Source: an uncultured Actinomycetes bacterium (GTDB taxonomy: Bacteria > Actinomycetota > Acidimicrobiia > Acidimicrobiales > JACCXE01). Taken from it: a DNA stretch of 64,000 bases. Location of the stretch: assembly GCA_963722185.1 (NCBI GenBank), contig CAVRKD010000004.1, forward strand, positions 130,918-194,917, read 5' to 3'. Position numbers and translations under genes: made by a program. Of this stretch, positions 10,345 through 53,773 are shown piece by piece. Within the stretch, counting starts at the first letter, position 1. Every line of letters begins with the position of its first letter. The notes under the pieces are model-generated. The model saw only the letters and a list, made by a program, of their open reading frames with translations, searched no databases and was not told the origin of the DNA.

Positions 10345-11584
10345 TGGCAGACGAGAGTATTCGAACTGATCGCGCGCGAGAAGGAGCGTCAGATGACGAC
10401 GCTCCAGTTGATCGCGTCGGAGAACTTCACCTCCGAAGCGGTCATGGCGGCGACCGGCTCGGTGCTCACCAACAAGTACTCCGAGGGCTACCCGGGCAAG
10501 CGGTACTACGGCGGCAACACGGTGATCGACGAGGTCGAGGCCATCGCCATCGAACGCGTCAAGGCGCTGTTCGGCGACAGCGCGGCGCACGCCAACGTGC
10601 AGCCTCACTCGGGCGCCAACGCCAACGTCGCCGTGTACCTCGCCTTGCTGCAGCCGGGCGACACGGTCCTCGGCCTGAGCCTCGACCACGGCGGCCACCT
10701 CACGCACGGCAAAGACGTCAACATCTCGGGCCGGCTCTACAACTTCGTGCCCTACGGCCTGAGCGAGTCCGACGAGCGCCTCGACTACGACGCCATCGGC
10801 GCGCTCGCCGAGGAGCACCAACCCAAGATGATCGTGGCCGGAGCGACCGCGTACAGCCGCATCATCGAGCCCGAGCCGCTGCGCAAGATTTGCTGACTCG
10901 GTCGGAGCGCTCTTGATGTTCGACGCTGCTCACATCGCCGGCCTCATCGTCGGCGGCGCGCACCCGAACCCGATGCCGTACTCCGATGTCGTCACCTTCA
11001 CCACGCACAAGACGCTGCGCGGTCCCCGCGGCGGCTGCATCCTCAGTTCGTCCGCCGAGATCGGCAAGAAGATCGACTCAGCGGTCTTCCCCGGGTTGCA
11101 GGGCGGTCCGCTGGAGCACGTCATCGCCGCCAAGGCCGTCGCTTTCGCCGAAGCGGCGCGGCCCGAGTTCAAGGCGTACGCCCAGCAGATCGTGAAGAAC
11201 GCCCAGGCGCTCGCCGGCGCGCTGTCCAAGGAGGGCTTCCGCATCGTGTCGGGCGGGACCGACAACCACTTGATGCTGGTCGACCTGCGAACCTTCGACG
11301 ACGACCTCACCGGCAAGGTCGCCCAGGAGACGCTCGACAGCGCCGGCATCACGCTGAACAAGAACACCATTCCCGACGACCCGCGCTCACCGTTCGTCAC
11401 CTCGGGTTTGCGCATCGGCACCGCAGCGGTGACCACCACCGGCATGACCGAAGCCGAGATGCCCGTCATCGCGCGACTGATCGGCGAGGCCCTCAAGGGT
11501 CGCGAAGAACCGGACACGCTCGGCACGGTCCGCAAGGAAGTCAACGAGCTGTGCGCCAAGTTCCCGCCGTACCCCGCTAGCTAG
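10344..11584 (+). pseudogene. glyA: serine hydroxymethyltransferase, two +1 frame breaks (10356, ~10890)
   Basis: Three frame segments: MADE / [21 protein letters not shown]...PLRKI / [18 protein letters not shown]...[12 protein letters not shown] (PLP Lys). ATG overlaps the rpiB stop. Confidence 0.92.
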
Positions 11585-11590
11585 CGAGCT

Positions 11591-12280
11591 CTACTCACTC
11601 CAGGTCGAAGTCGTGTCGATGACGTCGCGCCACCAGGCGGCGGAGTCGGTCCAACCGGTCTCTTCGCAGAACGCCAGCACCTCGCCGCATTTGCGGATCA
11701 TCGTGGTGTGCCGTTCTTCCCAGCTCGGCCGCCAACCCGCACCTTCGAAGAGGGCGTCGAGGATGTCGACCCGATCCGCGTGGTGCATCCGCACGAGCCA
11801 CTCGGCAAAGGCGAGGTCGTCGACGGGCGCGCCGAGGCTCGCCGACTCCCAGTCGATCACTGCGGCCACTCGGTCGTTGGCGAGGTCGAACAGCATGTTC
11901 TGGGCGCCGAAATCGCCGTGGCAGATGACGGTGCCGTGGCCCGTGAGATCGACGACCGACGTGGGAACCGACTGCATGACTCGATGGGTCTCGCCGATCA
12001 GTCGCATGACTGTGTGCCCCTCGCCGCGTTCGATCAGATCTTGGCCATGCTCGCCGTCGACCCAACGGATCACCAAGCGCGGCTCATCCAGGTCGCTCTC
12101 CACGACTTGGGGAACGGGCAACACGCCGGCCAACGCCGTCAGGCACGCGACCTCGCGGCGAGCGTTGTCGAAACGGCGCGATCCGAGGTATCTCTTCTCG
12201 ACCAGGTCGTCGCCGACGCGGCGGGTCGCGTTCGTGTAGCCGTGGGGAAGCTTCTCGTCGGAGCGAGTCGACTCGGTCAC
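11591..12280 (-). CDS. phosphotransferase (APH / choline-kinase family)
   Basis: Kinase-like motifs ICHGDFGAQN and VIDWES. GTG 12280 chosen as start. The longest ORF runs to 12400 through the repeat motif. Substrate unknown. Confidence 0.65.
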   Translation of the reverse strand: MTESTRSDEKLPHGYTNATRRVGDDLVEKRYLGSRRFDNARREVACLTALAGVLPVPQVVESDLDEPRLVIRWVDGEHGQDLIERGEGHTVMRLIGETHRVMQSVPTSVVDLTGHGTVICHGDFGAQNMLFDLANDRVAAVIDWESASLGAPVDDLAFAEWLVRMHHADRVDILDALFEGAGWRPSWEERHTTMIRKCGEVLAFCEETGWTDSAAWWRDVIDTTSTWSE

Positions 12281-12347
12281 CCGCTGAACTTCGCACGTCG
12301 CTCTGGGAGTTGCGAGCGGAAATGCCGTTCGGACGCGCCACGATGGG

Positions 12348-12417
12348 GGTTGGTGGCACGAGAAGCGTGCGATCGGCGACGAGACTTTCGGATCACACAC
12401 TTCTCAGGGCGTCTAAC
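12348..12417 (+). repeat. copy A of tripartite intergenic motif (GGTT-8nt-GCACGAGAAGCGTGC-21nt-ATCACAC-15nt-TAAC)
   Basis: Direct reading of the sequence. Same blocks and spacing as at 24712-24783 and on the reverse strand at 52205-52276. Confidence 0.85.
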
Positions 12418-12444
12418 AATCAGCACGGCCGCCGGTCGTCGCGG

Positions 12445-12494
12445 GAACTGGTCTCAGGAAACGGCCACATATGGCCGTTTCGTGAGACCAGTTC
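12445..12494. repeat. 50-nt near-perfect palindrome / hairpin
   Basis: GAACTGGTCTCA-G-GAAACGGCCA CATA TGGCCGTTTC-G-TGAGACCAGTTC. That is 12+10 bp of pairing with one G/G mismatch, 27 nt upstream of the wecA ATG. Confidence 0.9.
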
Positions 12495-12520
12495 GCTATG
12501 CGGTCCAGTAGAAACACCGC

Positions 12521-16942: not shown

Positions 16943-18474
<1,532 letters not shown>

Positions 18475-19447: not shown

Positions 19448-20894
<1,447 letters not shown>

Positions 20895-23106: not shown

Positions 23107-24639
23107 TTGAAGCGCAACAAGACATGGCTCGCATGGGCCTTAGCGGTAGGCCTCGTGGCGTATCTGCTGGGCGCAGCCACGGCGGGCCGCTCGACGATCG
23201 ATCCGGCTGACCAGGTCGTCAAAGCGATGGCGTCGGGCACCGCGCTCCATCTTGACGCCGTCCAAGCGGGCTTGACCGGGCCGCGCATCGCCGACGTCGA
23301 GGTTGCCTTCTCCTCGGCCAACGTCGACTCGAACGGCTTTCCGGCGGAGAGCCGCTTGACAGAAAACTCGGTGCTCGTCCAACCCGACCCGGCAGACCAC
23401 GAGCCCCCAACGCCGTTCGTCGACAAGAACGCGTCGGCCCGTGGCGCCGGGCTCGAACTCGGCTTGGGCGACGACGTACCGACCGCGGCGGGCAGCGTGA
23501 TCGCCGAAACCCGAGCGGGCGCGACCGCGCCTCCGGACTCCGAGGAGTCGCTCGACGAGGGCCCCGTTCCCGGTGGCCCCGTCGTCTACGCGTCGCTGCT
23601 TCATTCCGATGCCGCCGCCCGCTGGGTGCAATCCACCTGCCTGACCTCACCGCAGCTCCCGATCTCCTACGGGCGCGGTTACGCAGCTGACGTGCAACTA
23701 ATCGATGCCGGAGCCGGCAACGAAGACGACACCCTCGAGCAGCCCGTGGTCGCCACCGACGATCCGAACCCGCAGCGCAGCGTGTCGCAGACCAACTCCT
23801 TCGTGTACGCCGCGCCCAACGGTGTCGCCGGTCACTACGGCTTGGTCTCTGAGATTCACCAGACGTACGCGCCGGTCTCGATCGCACGCGGCCCGCTCAA
23901 CGCGATCGCCCCGCTGATCATCGAGGTGCTCGGCGAGTGGTACGTCCGCACCGAAGTCGACGGCATCGGCCCGGCCACCATGACCTACGGCGTTACCGAC
24001 AACGACCCGGCCAGCCCGACGTTTGGCCAACCGATCGGTGCCGGCGCGACCGTCATCCGGGTGTCGACCGACGGCGGCCTCACATATGAGGGCTTCAGCC
24101 TCCAGGATCTCGGTGAAGAAGGCGTCATCATCCCGGCGGCTCCGTTGGCGGAGATCGCCCTCGGCGAAAACCTCCGCGCCCTGTCGGCGCCGGGCGCACT
24201 CGCCGACCCCGAGTCGGCCCCTGTGCTGGCGGGTGACGGCACGCACGCCGCTGGTGCCGTCGATGTCGTCCGCATCGACGCCCTCGACGATCCCGTCAGT
24301 GGCATGTCACTGGCGGACCTTCGCATCGGCCATTTCGAGACCGATCTGACCGTTCCTGCGGGCGGCTTCACATGCGATCCTCCGGCGACGACCACCACGA
24401 CCACAACGACGACCCCGACGACGAGCACGTCTTCCACCACGACGACGTCGACTTCGACGACGACGTCGACTTCGACGACGCTCGCGCCGACGACCACGAC
24501 GACGGCGGCACCGACGACCACCACAACGGCAGGCGTCACGTCGACCACGGCGCCGCCGACAACAACCACAACCGCGGCCCCACCACCCCCGGCACCTCCA
24601 GCCACACCCCTACGGGTGCAGCCGAAGACCGTGGGCTAG
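23107..24639 (+). CDS. secreted/N-terminally anchored protein, paralog of 29936-31690, with Thr/Ser/Pro-rich C-terminal tail
   Basis: ORF is open from 23032. TTG 23107 follows SD GGAGGG (GTG 23098 is an alternative). TM segment WLAWALAVGLVAYLLGAATAG. Shares RW..TC, D.QL.DAGA, VSQT, EVLGEW, AVDVVR and TVPAGG.TC blocks with the downstream paralog. Confidence 0.7.
   Translation: MKRNKTWLAWALAVGLVAYLLGAATAGRSTIDPADQVVKAMASGTALHLDAVQAGLTGPRIADVEVAFSSANVDSNGFPAESRLTENSVLVQPDPADHEPPTPFVDKNASARGAGLELGLGDDVPTAAGSVIAETRAGATAPPDSEESLDEGPVPGGPVVYASLLHSDAAARWVQSTCLTSPQLPISYGRGYAADVQLIDAGAGNEDDTLEQPVVATDDPNPQRSVSQTNSFVYAAPNGVAGHYGLVSEIHQTYAPVSIARGPLNAIAPLIIEVLGEWYVRTEVDGIGPATMTYGVTDNDPASPTFGQPIGAGATVIRVSTDGGLTYEGFSLQDLGEEGVIIPAAPLAEIALGENLRALSAPGALADPESAPVLAGDGTHAAGAVDVVRIDALDDPVSGMSLADLRIGHFETDLTVPAGGFTCDPPATTTTTTTTTPTTSTSSTTTTSTSTTTSTSTTLAPTTTTTAAPTTTTTAGVTSTTAPPTTTTTAAPPPPAPPATPLRVQPKTVG
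24381..24612 (+). repeat. coding low-complexity Thr/Ser/Pro tract (includes 21-nt direct repeat ACGACGACGTCGACTTCGACG x2)
   Basis: Translates to ATTTTTTTTTPTTSTSSTTTTSTSTTTSTSTT...APPTTTTTAAPPPPAPP. Approximate limits. Confidence 0.8.
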
Positions 24640-24657
24640 CGAATCCCAGAACGTAAA

Positions 24658-24692
24658 GAGGCCCCCGGGCGAAAGCCGGGGGCCTCTTTTTT
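24658..24692. terminator. strong bidirectional intrinsic terminator
   Basis: GAGGCCCCCGG-GCGAAAG-CCGGGGGCCTC followed by TTTTTT and preceded by AAA. Lies between the convergent surface-protein gene and glpX. Confidence 0.85.
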
Positions 24693-24711
24693 ACGTTCGA
24701 GGCCCAATCCC

Positions 24712-24783
24712 GGTTTACTCGGCACGAGAAGCGTGCTCTCGAGCGTCCCGAGGCGGAATCACACCACTCTGGCGGCGAGTAAC
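24712..24783 (+). repeat. copy B of tripartite intergenic motif
   Basis: GGTTT-ACTCG-GCACGAGAAGCGTGC-21nt-ATCACAC-15nt-TAAC. Spacing identical to copy A. Confidence 0.85.
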
Positions 24784-24794
24784 GCCCGGCGGAG

Positions 24795-25786
24795 TTAGTT
24801 GAACTCGACCGCCGCGTATTCGCTGAGTTTGGCGAGGCGGTGTTGGGCCGTTACCAAGCGGACAGTGCCGGACTTGGAGCGCATGACCAGGCTCTGCGTG
24901 GTGGCGCCGTTCATGTTGTAGTGAACGCCTCGCAGAAGCTCGCCGTCGGTGATCCCGGTGGCGGCGAAGAAGCAGTTGTTGCCGCGCACGAGGTCTTCGC
25001 TGGTGAGCACGGCGTCGAGGTCGTAACCCATGTCGAGGGCGAGAGTGCGCTCCGCGTCATCGCGGGGCCACAAGCGGCCGAGCTGCTCGCCGCCCATGCA
25101 CTTGAGCGCGGCCGCGGCGATGACGCCTTCAGGCGTACCGCCGATCCCGAAGAGGATGTCGGCGCCCGAGTCGGGCCACGCCGTCGAGATGGCACCGGCG
25201 ACGTCGCCGTCTTGGATGAGGCGGATGCGGGCGCCGGCGGCGCGCACTTCGGCGATGAGATCGGTGTGGCGGTCGCGGTCGAGGATGACGGCGGTGACGT
25301 CGCGCACGTTCTCGCCCTTGGCCTTGGCCACGGCGGCGAGGTTGGCGGCCACGGGCGCTTCGAGGTCGATGACGCCCCTGGCCTCGGGCCCGACGGCGAT
25401 CTTCTCCATGTACACGCACGGTCCGGGGTTGAACATCGTGCCCCGCTCCGACACCGCGATTACCGACGAGCGCGTTGGCCCGGCCGAGCGAGGTAAGCGT
25501 CGTGCCGTCGATCGGGTCGACGGCGATATCGGTCTCGGGCGGTGAGCCGTCACCGATCTTTTCGCCGTTGTAGAGCATCGGCGCCTCGTCCTTCTCGCCT
25601 TCGCCGATCACGACGACACCGTCCATCGAAACGGTGTCGAGCACGATGCGCATGGCGTCAACGGCGGCGCCGTCGGCACCGTTCTTGTCGCCGCGACCCA
25701 TGAAACGCGACGCAGCGAGAGCGGCGGCCTCGGTCACGCGAACAAGATCCATGGCCAGGTTTCGGTCTGGCGCCTGCTGAGGGGAC

Positions 25787-27442: not shown

Positions 27443-28581
27443 GCGACTGGTCCAAGCCCGATCAGGAAGCGGACGAGCCAGAACAGCCCGCCGCTCCCGA
27501 GGTTCCCGAGGCACCGGTTGTTCCGGAGGTACACGAGGCGCCTGAGCCGCCCGAGGTGCTACCGGTCGCCACCGTGTTCGAGGCGCCGTCCGCACCTGCG
27601 CCTCCTGAAGCACCCGAACCTCCGGCAACGCCGGCGACCCCGGTAACGCCGGCGACCCCGGTAACGCCGGAGACCCCGGCAACGCCCGAGCCCCCGGCAA
27701 CGCCCCAGCCCCCGGCAACGCCCCAGCCCCCGGCAACGCCCCAGCCCCCGGCGGCACCGGCGTGGCAGTCGCCACCCACGCCCTCCGGCTACGCGATCCC
27801 GCAGAGCTACACGCCGACGGCGCCGCCCGAACCGCCCGCGCCGCCCGCGCCACCTACGCCGCCGGAGCCGACGGTCATCGACGAACCGTCACCCGAACCG
27901 CCACCGCCGATCATCGACGAAGAGCCCGCGCCACTCGAGCCAACGGACTGGTTCGAGCCGCCGCCTGTCGAAACGGCGCCGATCGTCGACGAGCCCGTCG
28001 TGCAACGGACCGAGCCGGAGATCATCGACGTTCCGGAATCGGAGGACATCGAAGAAGTCATCGAAGAGGCGGACGAAGAAGACGACGAGATCGTCTTCGA
28101 CTTGGCATCGTTGTCTTCCGAAGAGCGACGTCATCTCTCGATGCGACTCACCGGTGCCGGCATCACCCATCTGTGGGAAGTCGCCACCGACCTCGTGGTT
28201 TCGGTCGCGGACGCGCCCGTCATCGAGAGCTACATCGACGAAGTGCGCAACCCCGACGGGTTCGGCGACGAAGAGATCATCGCGTTCGAGGCCGACGAGG
28301 ACGTCGACGACGAAGCCGTCTACGCGGCGATGAGCAATCTGTATGTCGCCGCCGACAAGCTCATGCAGAAGCCCGGCGACGAAGTCACCGCCGGTGGGTT
28401 CTACGCCGCGGCCGACGACGTCGAAGGTCTGCCGCCGCCTTTCGGGTTCGACCCGCGCGTGTGGCAACAGGTACTCGGGCTCGCCGACGCGATCGTGGCC
28501 GCGCTCGACGCCGAAGCCGATCCCACCGGCATCGGCACCGACGCCAAGACCCTCCGTCAGCTGCTCGTCAACTACGTCTAA
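27439..28581 (+). CDS. proline-rich / acidic hypothetical protein
   Basis: 380 aa. GTG overlaps the mutase stop (GTGA). N-terminal half is P/A/T/E repeats and the C-terminal half is highly acidic. No family recognised. Confidence 0.55.
27622..27747 (+). repeat. seven tandem copies of an 18-bp unit (last three identical: CCGGCAACGCCCCAGCCC)
   Basis: Read directly from the sequence. Encodes P-[AV]-T-P-[AEQ]-[TP] hexapeptide repeats inside the CDS. Confidence 0.9.
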
Positions 28582-31765: not shown

Positions 31766-31812
31766 AATCTGTGATGAATCGATCGACTATGTCGATCGAT
31801 TCATCACAGATT
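31766..31812. repeat. 47-bp perfect AT-rich palindrome
   Basis: AATCTGTGATGAATCGATCGAC-TAT-GTCGATCGATTCATCACAGATT, with 22-bp arms and no mismatches. Starts 5 nt beyond the MFS gene stop. Confidence 0.95.
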
Positions 31813-34685: not shown

Positions 34686-34943
34686 GTGGAAACAGCTGTC
34701 CAGGAAGCGCTTGACGCCATACGCCCGGCCCTGCAGGCCGACGGCGGTGACATTCGCATCCTCAGCCTCGACGAGTTGACGGGTGTCCTCGACATCGAAC
34801 TCATGGGTGCCTGTGGTAGCTGCCCGATGTCCACGATGACCCTCAAGCAGGGCGTCGAACGGATCCTCAAGGACCGCGTCGAAGGCCTCACCGAAGTGCG
34901 CGCCAAGGGCATCGACTTCGACGTCGATCCCAGCGGTTTCTAG
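34686..34943 (+). CDS. NifU-C-terminal-domain (Nfu-type) Fe-S cluster protein
   Basis: 85 aa. ADGGDI...GACGSCPMSTMTLK (CxxC) signature. Confidence 0.8.
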   Translation: METAVQEALDAIRPALQADGGDIRILSLDELTGVLDIELMGACGSCPMSTMTLKQGVERILKDRVEGLTEVRAKGIDFDVDPSGF

Positions 34944-34977
34944 ACCACCTTCTGACACCTCTTAGGCTGGCCGCGCT

Positions 34978-35826
34978 GTGGACGCGGTAACCCCGAACGA
35001 CCTGAATCGCATGAAGGCCATCGCGTCGCGCCTGTGGGGCCTCGGTCGGCGGTGGGCGCCCGGTGAGATCGTGTGGTCGCTGATGACCGAGGGCGATCAC
35101 AACCAGGTTGAGTTCATCGGTGACGGGTTCTGCTGGTTGCAACCCGACTACGCGGTGATCGTCGTCACGAACGAAGCTGACGCGCTCGCCGCCCTCGACC
35201 TCGTTGCCGACGGGCCGGTACAGATCCCGGACGGCGACGAAATACTCGCGTCCGCGGCGCTCGCAGGCGGCTACGCCGTGATCGCCGACGCGCCGTTCGA
35301 GCTCGACGTGCGGTTGCCCGTCGAAAGCGCCGCGCTACCGGCGCCGCCCGAGGGCTATCGCGTGCGCGCTACCCGGCCCGGCGACGACCTCGTGGCGGCA
35401 CATCGCGACGCGTGGCGTCCCGCCGACCTGCCCTTCGCCGACGGCCACCGACCGGCGTTCGCCGACGACGCCACCAGCTCCTTCGACGACGCCGCGCTCA
35501 CCCGCGTCCAAAGTGACTCGCTGTACGAGGCCGGGCTCCACGTCGTGGCCGAGAGCCCTGCGGGTGAACTCGTCGGCAGTTGCATCGGCTGGCACGACGA
35601 CGCCGGTGGCACGGTCGTCATCGAACCGCTCGGTGTGAGCCTCGTCCATCGCAAACAGGGCCTTGCCGGTGCCATGTGCCTGCAGGTGGCGCGCCTCGCG
35701 GGCCGCAGCGGCGCGCAGGAAGTCGTTATCCACCCGCGCGGCGACGCCGCCTATCCCGCAGCGCGCGGCGCGTACGCCCGCGCCGGCTTCGTCGAGGTGG
35801 GCCGCACCCACCTGTACGCCAACTAA
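34978..35826 (+). CDS. GNAT family N-acetyltransferase
   Basis: 282 aa. C-terminal motif A HRKQGLAGAM and an acetyl-CoA-binding fold pattern. Confidence 0.6.
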   Translation: MDAVTPNDLNRMKAIASRLWGLGRRWAPGEIVWSLMTEGDHNQVEFIGDGFCWLQPDYAVIVVTNEADALAALDLVADGPVQIPDGDEILASAALAGGYAVIADAPFELDVRLPVESAALPAPPEGYRVRATRPGDDLVAAHRDAWRPADLPFADGHRPAFADDATSSFDDAALTRVQSDSLYEAGLHVVAESPAGELVGSCIGWHDDAGGTVVIEPLGVSLVHRKQGLAGAMCLQVARLAGRSGAQEVVIHPRGDAAYPAARGAYARAGFVEVGRTHLYAN

Positions 35827-44522: not shown

Positions 44523-47422
<2,900 letters not shown>

Positions 47423-47467
47423 CGGGTTTCCTCCTCGGGGAAGTAGTCCTTCCGTCCTAACACGGCG

Positions 47468-50211: not shown

Positions 50212-51090
50212 ATGGGCTCACTCGACGGGCGCGTAGCAATCATCACCGGAGCGGGCGGCGGCATCGGCCGCGAACACGCGCTGCTTTTCGCCGCCGAGGG
50301 CGCCAAGGTCGTCGTGAACGACCTCGGCGGCGCCATGGACGGCACCGGCGACGACCGCGGCGTGGCCGAGAAGGTGGCCGACGAGATCAAGGCCATGGGC
50401 GGCGAGGCCGTCGCCAACGCCGACAACATCGCCGACTGGGAAGGCGGCCAGCGCCTCATCAACACCGCCATCGAGGCGTTCGGCGATCTCCACGTCCTCG
50501 TGAACAACGCCGGCATCCTGCGCGACCGCGTGCTGGTCAACATGAGCGAGGAAGAGTGGGACGCGGTCATCCACGTCCACCTCAAGGGTCACTTCGTGCC
50601 CACCCGCCACGCGGCGGCGTACTGGCGGGAGCAGACCAAGGAAGGCAAAGCCGTGAACGCGGCGATCGTGAACACGTCGTCCACGTCGGGCCTCTTGGGC
50701 AACCCCGGCCAGACCAACTACGGCGCCGCCAAGGCCGGCATCGCGTCGTTCTCGAACATCTGCGCCCAGGAGCTCGCCCGCTACGGAGTGCGCTCCAACA
50801 CGATCGCCCCGGCGGCTCGCACCCGTCTCACCGAGGCCACGCCTGGTTTGGGCGACATGGTCAAGGCACCCGAGGATGCGGCCAAGTTCGACGCTTGGGA
50901 TCCGGCCAACGTCAGCCCGCTTGTGGCGTACCTGTCGACGGCTGACTGCCCGCTCACGGGCAAGGTCTTCTTCGTGCAAGGCGCCCGGGTGAGCCTCATG
51001 ACGCCGTGGGCGATGGGCGACACGTTCGACAACAAGAACGACCGCTGGACCGTCGACGGTCTCGCCAAGGAGCTCGCCTCGCTCGGTTAG
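50212..51090 (+). CDS. SDR family oxidoreductase
   Basis: TGAGGGIG cofactor motif, NNAG, and the YxxxK dyad (YGAAK). Confidence 0.8.
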   Translation: MGSLDGRVAIITGAGGGIGREHALLFAAEGAKVVVNDLGGAMDGTGDDRGVAEKVADEIKAMGGEAVANADNIADWEGGQRLINTAIEAFGDLHVLVNNAGILRDRVLVNMSEEEWDAVIHVHLKGHFVPTRHAAAYWREQTKEGKAVNAAIVNTSSTSGLLGNPGQTNYGAAKAGIASFSNICAQELARYGVRSNTIAPAARTRLTEATPGLGDMVKAPEDAAKFDAWDPANVSPLVAYLSTADCPLTGKVFFVQGARVSLMTPWAMGDTFDNKNDRWTVDGLAKELASLG

Positions 51091-51941
51091 AGGTTCTGTT
51101 CCAGCCACCGCTCGACGGCGGCAACGAACTCCTCTGGCTGCTCGATATAAGGATTGTGCGCGGAGCGTTCGAAGACTTCAGTCCTCGTCTTCGGCGGCTT
51201 CTTTGCGTCGGTCCAGTTGGTCATCGGTGCCATGAAGTCGTACTCGCCGAGGGCGAGTAGGACCGGGCAGGTGACGGATTTCATCGTGGTTGACCAGTCG
51301 ACGTTGGCGGCGTCCGTGAACAGCGCCGCCACCCACGCGACATCGCGATCGAGGATCTCGAGCGCGTCGAGCGCCGATGAGTCGAAGTCCGGGTCGTACC
51401 ACTGCCGCAGATGGTTGTACGCCTCCCGCAGTGTTTCCTTCTCGGCGGCGTCGGAGCTGGTGTTGTAGGCCTCGATGATTTCCGCCCCGCGGCGACGGCG
51501 TTCGGGTTCCGCCTTGGCCGCCCAGTACGCCGCGTTGTCCTCGGGATTAGGCGGCAGTGCCGGAGCCGGCGTGACGGCGATAGCCCCGGCGTAGTTGCCG
51601 GCGGCAGCCGCGGCCAAGGCGAGCGTCCCGTTCATGGAGTGGCCGAACAGCACGACTTGCCCCGGATCGTTCGAGATGTGCGCCGCCAGCTCGCCCACGG
51701 TGGCCACGACCGACGCCACTGACTGCTCCGTCGGGTCGCCTTCGGAGCGCCCGGTGCCCGGCAGTTCAGCGACGTGGACCGCAAAGAGGTCGCCAAATCG
51801 GGCCGGAAGCGCCTCGAGCATCCACGGCGCGCCGATGGGCGTGAGCACCAGCAAGGGAATCGGGCCATATCCGGCCAATTCGACGCATACGACGCCCGCC
51901 GAGGTGGGTACGTGAAGGGCTGACGAATTCGCGAGCGCCAT
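51087..51941 (-). CDS. alpha/beta hydrolase
   Basis: ATG 51941 (ORF open to 52142). Nucleophile elbow GHSMNG. Confidence 0.7.
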   Translation of the reverse strand: MALANSSALHVPTSAGVVCVELAGYGPIPLLVLTPIGAPWMLEALPARFGDLFAVHVAELPGTGRSEGDPTEQSVASVVATVGELAAHISNDPGQVVLFGHSMNGTLALAAAAAGNYAGAIAVTPAPALPPNPEDNAAYWAAKAEPERRRRGAEIIEAYNTSSDAAEKETLREAYNHLRQWYDPDFDSSALDALEILDRDVAWVAALFTDAANVDWSTTMKSVTCPVLLALGEYDFMAPMTNWTDAKKPPKTRTEVFERSAHNPYIEQPEEFVAAVERWLEQNL

Positions 51942-52105
51942 GGTGCGATTCAAGCAGTCGGCGTCGAAATTTCTCCGATAAAGGCGCGAGAAACCACTTC
52001 GGTAAAGCGTTGATGTCCGTGACAGGGCCCGAGAGGGCGACGCGTCGAGACAGTGTTCCCCAGCCACTGTCGGTGCCGTCGCTCTCTCGGGCTCTGTCGC
52101 GTTAG

Positions 52106-52129
52106 GTCGCCCGCCTCGCGGCGGGCGAC
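52106..52129 (+). other. perfect 10-bp GC hairpin (GTCGCCCGCC-TCGC-GGCGGGCGAC) followed by TGGGTTTG
   Basis: Read directly. Lies in the 360-bp non-coding gap between divergent genes. Confidence 0.8.
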
Positions 52130-52204
52130 TGGGTTTGAACACGCCGGAGCGCTGCGATCAGCCCCATCTCGCGCCGATCACGACGCGTCCGTGGGTTCAA
52201 ACCC
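52130..52204. repeat. 10-bp inverted repeat GGGTTTGAAC ... GTTCAAACCC enclosing 55 nt
   Basis: Arms at 52131-52140 and 52195-52204. Directly abuts motif copy C. Confidence 0.7.
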
Positions 52205-52276
52205 GTTAGCCGGCTTAAAAAAGGGTGTGATCGGCGAGCTCGGAAGTGGATCCCACGCTTCTCGTGCGGTGAAACC
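52205..52276 (-). repeat. copy C of tripartite intergenic motif (reverse orientation)
   Basis: The reverse complement reads GGTTT-CACC-GCACGAGAAGCGTGG-21nt-ATCACAC-16nt-TAAC. Confidence 0.85.
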
Positions 52277-52303
52277 ATCTGCGGCGGGCTAGTCGTGTGA
52301 GCT

Positions 52304-53773
52304 TTGGTCGGTCCCCTTGCCGCCGGTAGGTTCACCCCGGTGGAGGCCACTCGCCGTTGGGAGCGCTTGCAGGAGCGTCCCCGGTACAAGTGGTGGGTTC
52401 TGTGGACGGCGATGGGCGGGCTGTTCTCGGTCAACGTGACGTTCACGATCCTGGCGGTCGCGCTGCCGCGCATCGCTGACGAATTCGACACCACGAGCAA
52501 CACCCTGACGTGGGTGATCACCGGCCCGCTCCTCGCATTTGGCGTGGCGGCGCCGTCGCTCGGAAAGGCGGCCGACCAGTACGGGCACAAGCGCGTGTAC
52601 CAGTACGGGCTGATCCTGTCGTTCTTCGCCGCCGGGGCTTCGGCGCTTGCGTGGGGAGCGCTGCCGCTGATCGTCATCCGGACCATCGGTTCTCTCGAAG
52701 GCGCGGCGACCGGCGCGGCGTCGATGGCCATCGTGATGCGCACCTTCGACCGCCACGAGCGGGTAAAGGCCATGGGCTGGTGGTCGCTGGTCGGCGCCGG
52801 CGGACCGGTCATCGGCGTCGTGCTCGGCGGCTTCCTGCTCGAGACCGTGGGTTGGCGCGTGATCTTCGCCGCGCAGATGCCGCTGATCGCGCTGGCTTTC
52901 GTGCTCGGCTCGATCGTGCTGCCCGAGACCGAGACGTTACCGGCGCAGAAGTTCGACATCGCCGGCGCGCTGACGCTCAGCGGGGGCGTGACCGCGTTGC
53001 TGTTCGCCATCAACCGCGGGCCCGAGGTCGGTTGGGACAGCCCGATCGTTCGGCTCGCGTTCGTGCTCTGTCCAGTGCTGCTGTACGCCTTCGTGCGCGT
53101 CGAGCGACGAAGCGCCGCGCCGCTGATCTCACTCGCGTACTTGAAGAAGCCGTCGTTCGCCTTCCCCATCACGTCGAACGCGCTGGCGAACAGCGCGTAC
53201 ATGGGCGGTTTCATCCTCACGCCGCAGTTGCTGCAGAAGGTCTACGGCTACAGCGAGCAGAAGATCGGCCTGCTGGTGATCGCCCGGCCGCTGTCGTTCT
53301 CGATCCTGTCACCGGTTGCGGGCTATCTCGCCGTAAAGATCGGCCAACGCACCTCGGCGGTCGCCGGCACGTTGTTCGTCGTCGCGTCGATGGGCGTCTT
53401 CGCGCTGCTTGGCGCCGACTCACCCAACCTGCTCATCATCGCCGCGCTGGTGCTCTCGGGCGTCGGCCTCGGCGTCTCACAGCCGTCGATCTCCGCCGGC
53501 ATCGCCAACGCTGTGGCCGACCAGGACCTCGGCATCGCCAGCGCGGCGCAGCAGCTGATGCAGAACGTCGGCATCGTGAGCGGCATTCAGATCATGACCT
53601 CGGTGCAGACGTCGATTGGTCAAGGCTCGACGGGCGCCGCCGCACTGCACAGCTTCCACATGGCCTACCTCGTCGGCGGCGCGATCTGTGTCGGTGGCGT
53701 CTTACTCGCCCTCGGTGTCAAGAACGAACACGCCCGCCCCGAGCCCCACCCGGAGCTCTACGAGCCGTACTAG
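52304..53773 (+). CDS. MFS transporter, DHA2 (14-TMS drug:H+ antiporter)-like
   Basis: 489 aa, about 14 TM segments, EmrB/QacA-like layout. Start is TTG 52304 or GTG 52340. Confidence 0.8.
   Translation: MVGPLAAGRFTPVEATRRWERLQERPRYKWWVLWTAMGGLFSVNVTFTILAVALPRIADEFDTTSNTLTWVITGPLLAFGVAAPSLGKAADQYGHKRVYQYGLILSFFAAGASALAWGALPLIVIRTIGSLEGAATGAASMAIVMRTFDRHERVKAMGWWSLVGAGGPVIGVVLGGFLLETVGWRVIFAAQMPLIALAFVLGSIVLPETETLPAQKFDIAGALTLSGGVTALLFAINRGPEVGWDSPIVRLAFVLCPVLLYAFVRVERRSAAPLISLAYLKKPSFAFPITSNALANSAYMGGFILTPQLLQKVYGYSEQKIGLLVIARPLSFSILSPVAGYLAVKIGQRTSAVAGTLFVVASMGVFALLGADSPNLLIIAALVLSGVGLGVSQPSISAGIANAVADQDLGIASAAQQLMQNVGIVSGIQIMTSVQTSIGQGSTGAAALHSFHMAYLVGGAICVGGVLLALGVKNEHARPEPHPELYEPY

Follow-up and report, generated by a model that had tools for sequence, protein, structure and literature searches.

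An imperfectly palindromic intergenic motif gained in an Acidimicrobiales lineage, plausibly a REP/REPIN- or MITE-like repeat family

The window (the whole 64-kb stretch of DNA that was analysed, with a composition of 67% GC) carries a non-coding motif in three intergenic regions, two between divergent genes and one between convergent genes. Copy 1 lies between a GT4/wecA-like GlcNAc-1-P transferase gene and an APH-like kinase gene, copy 2 lies beside glpX, and copy 3, with a diverged fourth member next to it, lies between an alpha/beta-hydrolase gene and an EmrB/QacA-type MFS exporter gene. The nearest homologues of the flanking proteins are found in Acidimicrobiales or Actinomycetota MAGs. 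All four copies are intergenic, and they occur on both strands, as follows.

12348-12417, + strand: copy 1, with box 1 at 12356-12370, box 2 at 12392-12398 and TAAC at 12414-12417; its parts are a left unit GGTTGGTG-GCACGAGAAGCGTGC-GATC, a centre of 16 nt and a right unit GATCACAC...TAAC
24712-24783, + strand: copy 2, with a degenerate left GATC (GTGCTCTC) and the outer arms GGTTTACTCG and CGAGTAAC
52205-52276, - strand: copy 3, with boxes as in copies 1 and 2 and the most degenerate right arm among copies 1-3
52131-52204, + strand: copy 4, GGGTTTGAAC...CTGCGATC-N16-GATCAC...GTTCAAACCC, tail-to-tail with copy 3 and lacking the exact 14-mer

The window contains the 14-mer GCACGAGAAGCGTG exactly three times, at 12356 (+), 24722 (+) and 52254-52267 (-); the 14-mer makes up the 14 nt of the GCACG-AGAAG-CGTGC unit that are invariant in copies 1-3, a short and imperfect palindromic core. 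GGTT(T) is found 4-6 nt 5' of the 14-mer in these copies, the sequence upstream of box 1 being GGTTGGTG, GGTTTACTCG or GGTTTCACC. The heptamer ATCACAC follows 22 nt after the 14-mer, exactly in 3/3 copies, and is separated from TAAC by spacers of 15, 15 and 16 nt in copies 1, 2 and 3, respectively. The threefold motif, the coordinates and the blocks described in the initial annotation are confirmed. Pairwise local alignment shows that the likeness among the copies is limited to the motif, and a small conserved ORF was ruled out because the flanks display neither conservation nor codon periodicity.

Copies 1 and 3 each lie between divergent genes, so that either orientation places two of the three copies upstream of a gene; read in the orientation opposite to that facing the APH-like and MFS genes, they precede the wecA-like and alpha/beta-hydrolase genes just as well. 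Copy 2 is situated between the glpX stop codon (24795-24797, - strand) and a bidirectional terminator (24655-24689) that serves convergent genes. The strong hairpin that had been assigned to this copy, at 24788-24814, proves to be a 5-bp stem formed by the last glpX codons, which is kept as coding sequence in relatives and is not a feature of the element.

The recurrence of the 14-nt core had been taken as proof against chance, a claim that fails for the 14-mer alone and holds for the composite. Simulated windows generated with an order-3 Markov model contain a mean of 3.6 14-mers occurring at least three times per window, and three other dispersed 14-mer triples are present in the real window, every one in coding DNA; the 14-mer triple by itself is within chance expectation at 67% GC. 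In the 70-nt flanks of these control triples, invariant runs outside the core do not exceed 2 nt, whereas the motif contains an invariant 7-mer at a fixed offset. It is this 7-mer, in addition to the intergenic position of every copy, that places the composite far beyond chance. A profile built on copies 1-3 detects no additional copy in the window.

The motif aligns to its own reverse complement, and analysis by hand resolves each copy into an imperfect inverted doublet of a ~26-nt unit, GTT-N6-GCACGAGAAGCGTG-N-GAT(C), which itself holds a 5-5-5 palindromic core, around a centre of 16 nt that is fixed in length and free in sequence. Compared by hand with the reverse complement of the left arm, the right arm matches at 19/26 positions in copy 1, 17/27 in copy 2 and 15/26 in copy 3, and the left-right complementarity of copies 1-4 amounts to 0.74, 0.59, 0.61 and 0.75, against 0.51-0.54 for shuffles. 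In gapped alignments, the arms of different copies are identical at 0.57-0.79 (about 0.52 for shuffles), and the identity between centres, 0.50-0.62, is at background level (0.44-0.57 for shuffles). The doublet is asymmetric in that the left box is invariant in copies 1-3, whereas the right arm is degenerate except for ATCACAC and TAAC. The terminal repeats read CCGGGCGTTACTCG / CGAGTAAACCGGG in copy 2 and GGGTTTGAAC / GTTCAAACCC in copy 4, and copies 1 and 3 share only GTT...AAC. An inner helix of 13 pairs has 84.6% of its cells paired, compared with 36-64% when slid, and it shows zero compensatory changes, that is, no covariation, across the copies. The RNA fold of copy 1 has a z-score of -2.0 on the + strand and -3.7 on the - strand, and the DNA fold of copy 4 has a z-score of -3.1; copies 2 and 3 fold no better than shuffled sequence.

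Copy 4 was recognized through the pattern TGnGATC-N16-GATCAC, taken from copies 1 and 3, which matches the window only in these two copies and at 52153-52181 and has no match in 60 simulated windows. The site at 52153-52181 is located inside a long hairpin (52131-52204) that abuts copy 3, and its ends and 16-nt centre are those of the family, with box 1 present in the diverged version CACGCCGGAGCGCTGC. The arms of copy 4 are identical to those of the other copies at 0.57-0.76, against approximately 0.5 for shuffles. The three-copy profile misses copy 4 (E = 40), and its membership in the family therefore rests on architecture and adjacency.

The quality of the assembly bears on how closely the spacings can be read, in that four genes of the window are each split by frameshifts, at the following sites.

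10345-11584: glyA
17530-18474: atpA part
19696-20894: atpD split
~25470: glpX

We attribute these frameshifts to indel errors in a long-read assembly that was left unpolished, and do not regard the genes as pseudogenes; single-base differences of spacing in the window should accordingly not be over-read. In copy 3, the 16-nt spacer includes a T6 homopolymer, and its true length may be 15 nt, the additional base being an indel error. An independent Logan assembly (run ERR12037361) encodes an identical APH protein, with the nearest called upstream gene start 310 nt away, which indicates that the long spacer beside the APH-like gene is not peculiar to the assembly analysed here.

Comparison with syntenic relatives reveals that the copies lie in blocks found only in the window.

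12262-12508, no strand: block of ~210 nt from the GT4/wecA-like start to the APH-like start, containing copy 1 and a palindrome at 12445-12494
24692-24788, no strand: block of ~94 nt containing copy 2
52103-52323, no strand: block of ~210 nt from a conserved hairpin to the MFS start, containing a hairpin at 52106-52129, copy 4 and copy 3

Relatives that retain the flanking genes (those for the APH-like kinase and the MFS exporter, and glpX together with the terminator beside it) have an empty site at each of the three loci. In L003 (amino-acid identity of 85% for the APH-like protein and 97% for GT4), the same divergent gene pair has start codons 27 nt apart, against 240 nt in the window (~210 extra). 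In L008/L009 (glpX identity of 97%), L010 (96%) and L012/L013 (90%), the glpX stop codon is followed by 12-16 nt and then by a terminator, which in L008 and L010 is the same terminator as in the window, and copy 2 is absent; L011 (92%) has unrelated sequence at this site. The element is missing here from four independent relatives. L006, L007 and L014 (MFS identity of 82-86%) have the conserved upstream region and a 31-bp hairpin in common with the window. The MFS start lies 10-60 nt after this hairpin in L006 and L007, compared with ~210 extra nt in the window, and an RDD-family gene occupies the copy 3 site in L014.

Across approximately 117 kb of non-redundant syntenic DNA from relatives, profiles and the architecture pattern detect no family member, against four in the 64 kb of the window. 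The distances at 4-fold degenerate sites are 0.31 between the window and L010, 0.36 between the window and L008, and 0.49 between L010 and L008; the window is thus not an outgroup, and gain in its lineage is the most parsimonious history. The copies are insertions, and the family is restricted to this lineage among the relatives compared. Between this lineage and its relatives 26-49% of 4-fold sites differ, which indicates that neutral sites have come near to saturation in the time since they separated. Comparison of the filled site of copy 2 with the empty sites of L008 and L010 reveals no direct repeat at the junctions, i.e., no target-site duplication, with boundaries placed to within about 5 nt. 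As a separate observation, a relative with 92% identity is represented by L004 and L005, contigs of two different assemblies, and position 1 of both is one and the same base, 183 nt before the MFS gene and beside a different hairpin (CTTGTTGTGC...GCACAACAAG); the shared end suggests that a repeat has its boundary at the homologue of the copy 3 site.

Several palindromes and inserts unrelated to the motif are also present in the window. At 12445-12494, adjoining the wecA-like GlcNAc-1-P transferase gene, 50 nt form a near-perfect palindrome whose 23-nt arms are 96% complementary (DNA fold z-score of -11.8); it is missing from L003, and its outer arms, ACTGGTCT and AGACCAGT, correspond to the two half-sites of the DasR dre consensus. 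Between convergent genes, at 31766-31812, lies another palindrome, perfect and with arms of 22 nt (AATCTGTGATGAATCGATCGAC); it represents a 53-nt window-only insertion directly after a terminator conserved in L012, and is a second kind of lineage-specific palindromic insert. The hairpin at 52106-52129 is GC-rich and lies in a window-only block. In view of these three window-only palindromes, palindromic intergenic insertions look like a general trait of the genome.

The 31-bp hairpin between an SDR gene and the MFS exporter (52022-52099 on the + strand of the window, ~9889-9967 in L006, ~9791-9870 in L007, and also in L014) is kept across lineages that differ at ~50% of 4-fold sites and has three compensatory pairs. 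Its G·U pairs fall on the MFS strand, no Rfam family matches it above threshold, and a conserved GAAATTTCTC...GAGAAA stretch (51968-51998) precedes it on the 5' side; it could be the SDR terminator or an MFS leader/attenuator. Three single-gene blocks of ~860-880 bp (34943-35822, 46587-47467 and 51068-51967) are missing from syntenic relatives and encode a GNAT acetyltransferase, a metallo-beta-lactamase-fold protein and an alpha/beta hydrolase; they have no common border motif, and the alpha/beta-hydrolase ORF failed a GC3 filter that the other genes passed. Coding tandem repeats with a period of 9-18 nt (24383-24604 and 27577-27774) encode low-complexity Asp/His/Thr-rich and Pro/Ala-rich stretches and vary in length among relatives.

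A scan of the whole window against Rfam (15) at the gathering threshold gives no match on the motif, and relaxed scans around each copy return just miRNA-like, terminator and generic hairpin noise on the neighbouring hairpins. The exact two-box pattern has one match in 185,579 species genomes and one in JGI metagenomes, and both are taken as chance because their gap is 21 nt instead of 22, the surrounding sequence looks coding-like, and neither GGTT nor TAAC is present at the ends. The two-box pattern has no match in viral contigs, blastn of the window-only blocks against plasmids and phages gives none, and a literal search of the literature for the motif sequence is also negative. No tRNA or tmRNA gene is found in the window, and no transposase or Y1/RAYT-type gene is present among the ~38 of ~55 candidate window ORFs scanned, all before 53.8 kb.

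Known promoter and operator types were compared with the motif as well. No sigma-70-type promoter is predicted at the three loci by a criterion that demands -35 and -10 hexamers, the -10 having A as its second and T as its sixth base; TAAC(A/G)N does not end in the T that a sigma-70 -10 requires. By eye, a sigma-54 promoter (TGGCAC-N5-TTGC) was rejected for wrong spacing and the absence of GG in copy 3, a SigF/SigB-type promoter (GTTT-N15-17-GGGTA) for a -10 that is not conserved, and an ECF-type AAC...CGT because it occurs in copies 1 and 3 only, at 19 nt. CRP/GlxR (TGTGA-N6-TCACA) is represented by a half-site only, and parS and the DnaA, LexA and IdeR boxes do not fit.

These observations bear on three roles that had been put forward for the motif, a shared leader or operator, a small structured RNA and a miniature repeat family, among which the last is best supported by the lineage-specific insertions, the empty sites, the imperfect palindromes and copy 4. 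As a host cis-regulatory DNA module, the motif would offer GCACG-AGAAG-CGTGC as a candidate operator for a dimeric regulator and, three helical turns away, ATCACAC and TAAC as a candidate second contact for a protein or sigma factor, and the flanking genes would form a single lineage-specific regulon, to which a mobile element may have delivered the module. The exact spacing of invariant blocks around spacers of background similarity is a signature of double-stranded DNA recognition, the box centres, ~32 bp apart, would lie on one face of the helix, and two of the loci are divergent promoter regions. If the copies are old, the 21 bases invariant in three of them, seen against the divergence at 4-fold sites, also argue for selection. 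We nevertheless consider regulation unlikely: in relatives the same genes, among them those for the APH-like kinase and the MFS exporter, do without the motif, copy 2 is enclosed by a stop codon and the terminator that convergent genes share and has nothing to lead or regulate, none of the three copies has a predicted sigma-70-type promoter, and copy 4 has the architecture without box 1. A leader role for the resistance-type genes is not supported, and their association with the motif is post hoc and weak, with a rough P of ~0.05 for three MFS genes and one APH-like gene among ~60 genes. More doubtful still is a module of structured RNA, be it a UTR element or a small RNA, transcribed on the strand of the glpX, MFS and APH-like genes. 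Such a module would act on mRNA stability or translation through the long hairpin or a 5-bp GCACG/CGUGC stem-loop, and it would suit the position of copy 2 within the glpX transcription unit, that of copy 3 on the MFS strand, with the conserved hairpin upstream of it and the MFS start downstream, the fact that the same strand faces the adjacent gene at 3/3 loci, and the z-score of copy 1 on its gene-facing strand. However, positive evidence for an RNA is lacking in the Rfam scans, where relaxed thresholds yield generic hairpin noise, in the shared helix, which has no compensatory change, and in the inconsistent z-scores, copies 2 and 3 being no better than shuffles; in our reading, the G·U pairs of copy 1 and those of copy 3 point to opposite strands, a fixed spacer length with free sequence is atypical of RNA helices, and the element is missing in relatives.

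Chance resemblance, or an artefact of a noisy long-read MAG, is very improbable. A 14-mer triple alone is expected in this composition and essential genes of the assembly are frameshifted, but the invariant 7-mer at a fixed offset comes with GGTT and TAAC ends for which the control triples have nothing similar, TGnGATC-N16-GATCAC is matched three times against none in 60 simulations, intergenic blocks of 94-210 nt cannot be created by indel noise, and the independent Logan assembly also has a long spacer beside the APH gene. The age of the copies matters for the remaining alternatives. If they are old, the 21 invariant bases are under selection in place, and this would imply a host function and not mobility alone; one possibility is instead that the copies are young and descend from distinct master copies with only the boxes in common, as happens in REPIN populations. 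Because four copies cannot separate old from young copies, the regulatory reading keeps its place as an unlikely one and the RNA reading its place below it. A further and improbable option combines the two sides: a mobile palindrome may have been domesticated as a portable operator or nucleoid-protein site, its boxes kept by selection, in which case a host protein would couple glpX, the wecA-like/APH-like pair and the MFS exporter, or, alternatively, the family may be copied by a non-RAYT system in a phylum in which REPIN-like systems have not been described.

We lean towards the motif being a REP/REPIN- or MITE-like non-autonomous palindromic repeat family that has spread in this Acidimicrobiales lineage, a reading that fits a genome in which palindromic intergenic insertions appear to accumulate as a general trait. 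The element would be a non-coding, imperfectly palindromic dispersed repeat of ~72-95 bp, gained in this lineage and inserted into intergenic DNA irrespective of gene orientation, and it might come to adjoin another element in opposite orientation, as copies 3 and 4 do, or an unrelated palindrome. We infer that the invariant boxes are the determinants for a copying or binding protein, recognized as a double strand or as a hairpin, and that the rest of the element drifts freely; the mechanism of mobility is likewise inferred, as is a high copy number in the genome, which extrapolates from four copies in a single 64-kb window. Once inserted, the element would ride in neighbouring transcripts, in the 3' UTR of glpX and the 5' regions of the MFS and APH-like genes, where it might act as an RNA hairpin.

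If the repeat-family interpretation is correct, a REP/REPIN-like palindromic repeat family is documented in Acidimicrobiia, an uncultured and poorly studied actinobacterial class, and its seeming association with resistance genes is incidental, a product of where small elements are able to insert. Elements of this kind break short-read assemblies, add hairpins to UTRs, and in motif scans can pass for riboswitches or operators.

Among known systems, integron attC sites resemble the family in being imperfect palindromes (57-141 bp) with short conserved cores and variable interiors. They were rejected because the ends are reversed, the motif reading GTT...AAC on either strand against RYYYAAC...GTTRRRY in attC, and because the flanking genes are conserved core chromosomal genes rather than cassettes; attC-like sites are also absent from the borders of the three single-gene insertions. 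The Correia elements of Neisseria and the enterobacterial ERIC/IRU sequences, which are MITEs, are small non-coding imperfect palindromes that are intergenic, co-transcribed with their neighbours and variably present among close relatives. The family described here is likewise small, non-coding, imperfectly palindromic, intergenic and present or absent between relatives, but it shows no target-site duplication at copy 2, the sole site with a known empty allele, its terminal inverted repeats (GGTT...AAC) are weak, and its copies are much more diverged than those of recently amplified MITEs typically are.

In E. coli, BIMEs are mosaics of REP units in alternating orientation, to which the tail-to-tail arrangement of copies 3 and 4 and the unrelated palindromes (52106-52129 and 12445-12494) in the same window-only blocks may be compared, although a single such cluster is seen in the window. 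REPs number in the tens to hundreds per genome and go with a cognate RAYT gene that is single-copy and flanked by the repeat, against four copies in the 64-kb window. A GTAG-type tetranucleotide 5' of the palindrome is typical of the REPs of E. coli and Pseudomonas, and no GTAG head is found upstream of box 1 in the copies examined. The family further differs from REP/REPIN systems in that its centre is fixed at 16 nt, that no RAYT gene is seen among the window ORFs scanned, and that its host is an Acidimicrobiales MAG; Actinobacteria are not mentioned in a survey of RAYTs (PMC5581495). The second unit is degenerate in three copies and the first is invariant, and this combination of one invariant arm with one decaying arm is the unusual feature of the family. 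REPs (repetitive extragenic palindromes) pair up in hairpin-forming doublets, the REPINs, and are mobilized by RAYT Y1 transposases (PMC3337134, PMC3116915); a REPIN consists of two inverted REPs, 16-mers with palindromic cores, around a spacer, with a length of ~89 bp and spacers that are never alike (PMC3337134). The family in the window resembles this description, and more loosely that of small MITEs, in that it is extragenic, contains a short conserved unit with an imperfect palindromic core, appears to arrange two inverted units around a spacer that differs in each copy over ~72-95 bp (against 89 bp), adjoins other palindromic units, and is specific to a species or lineage.
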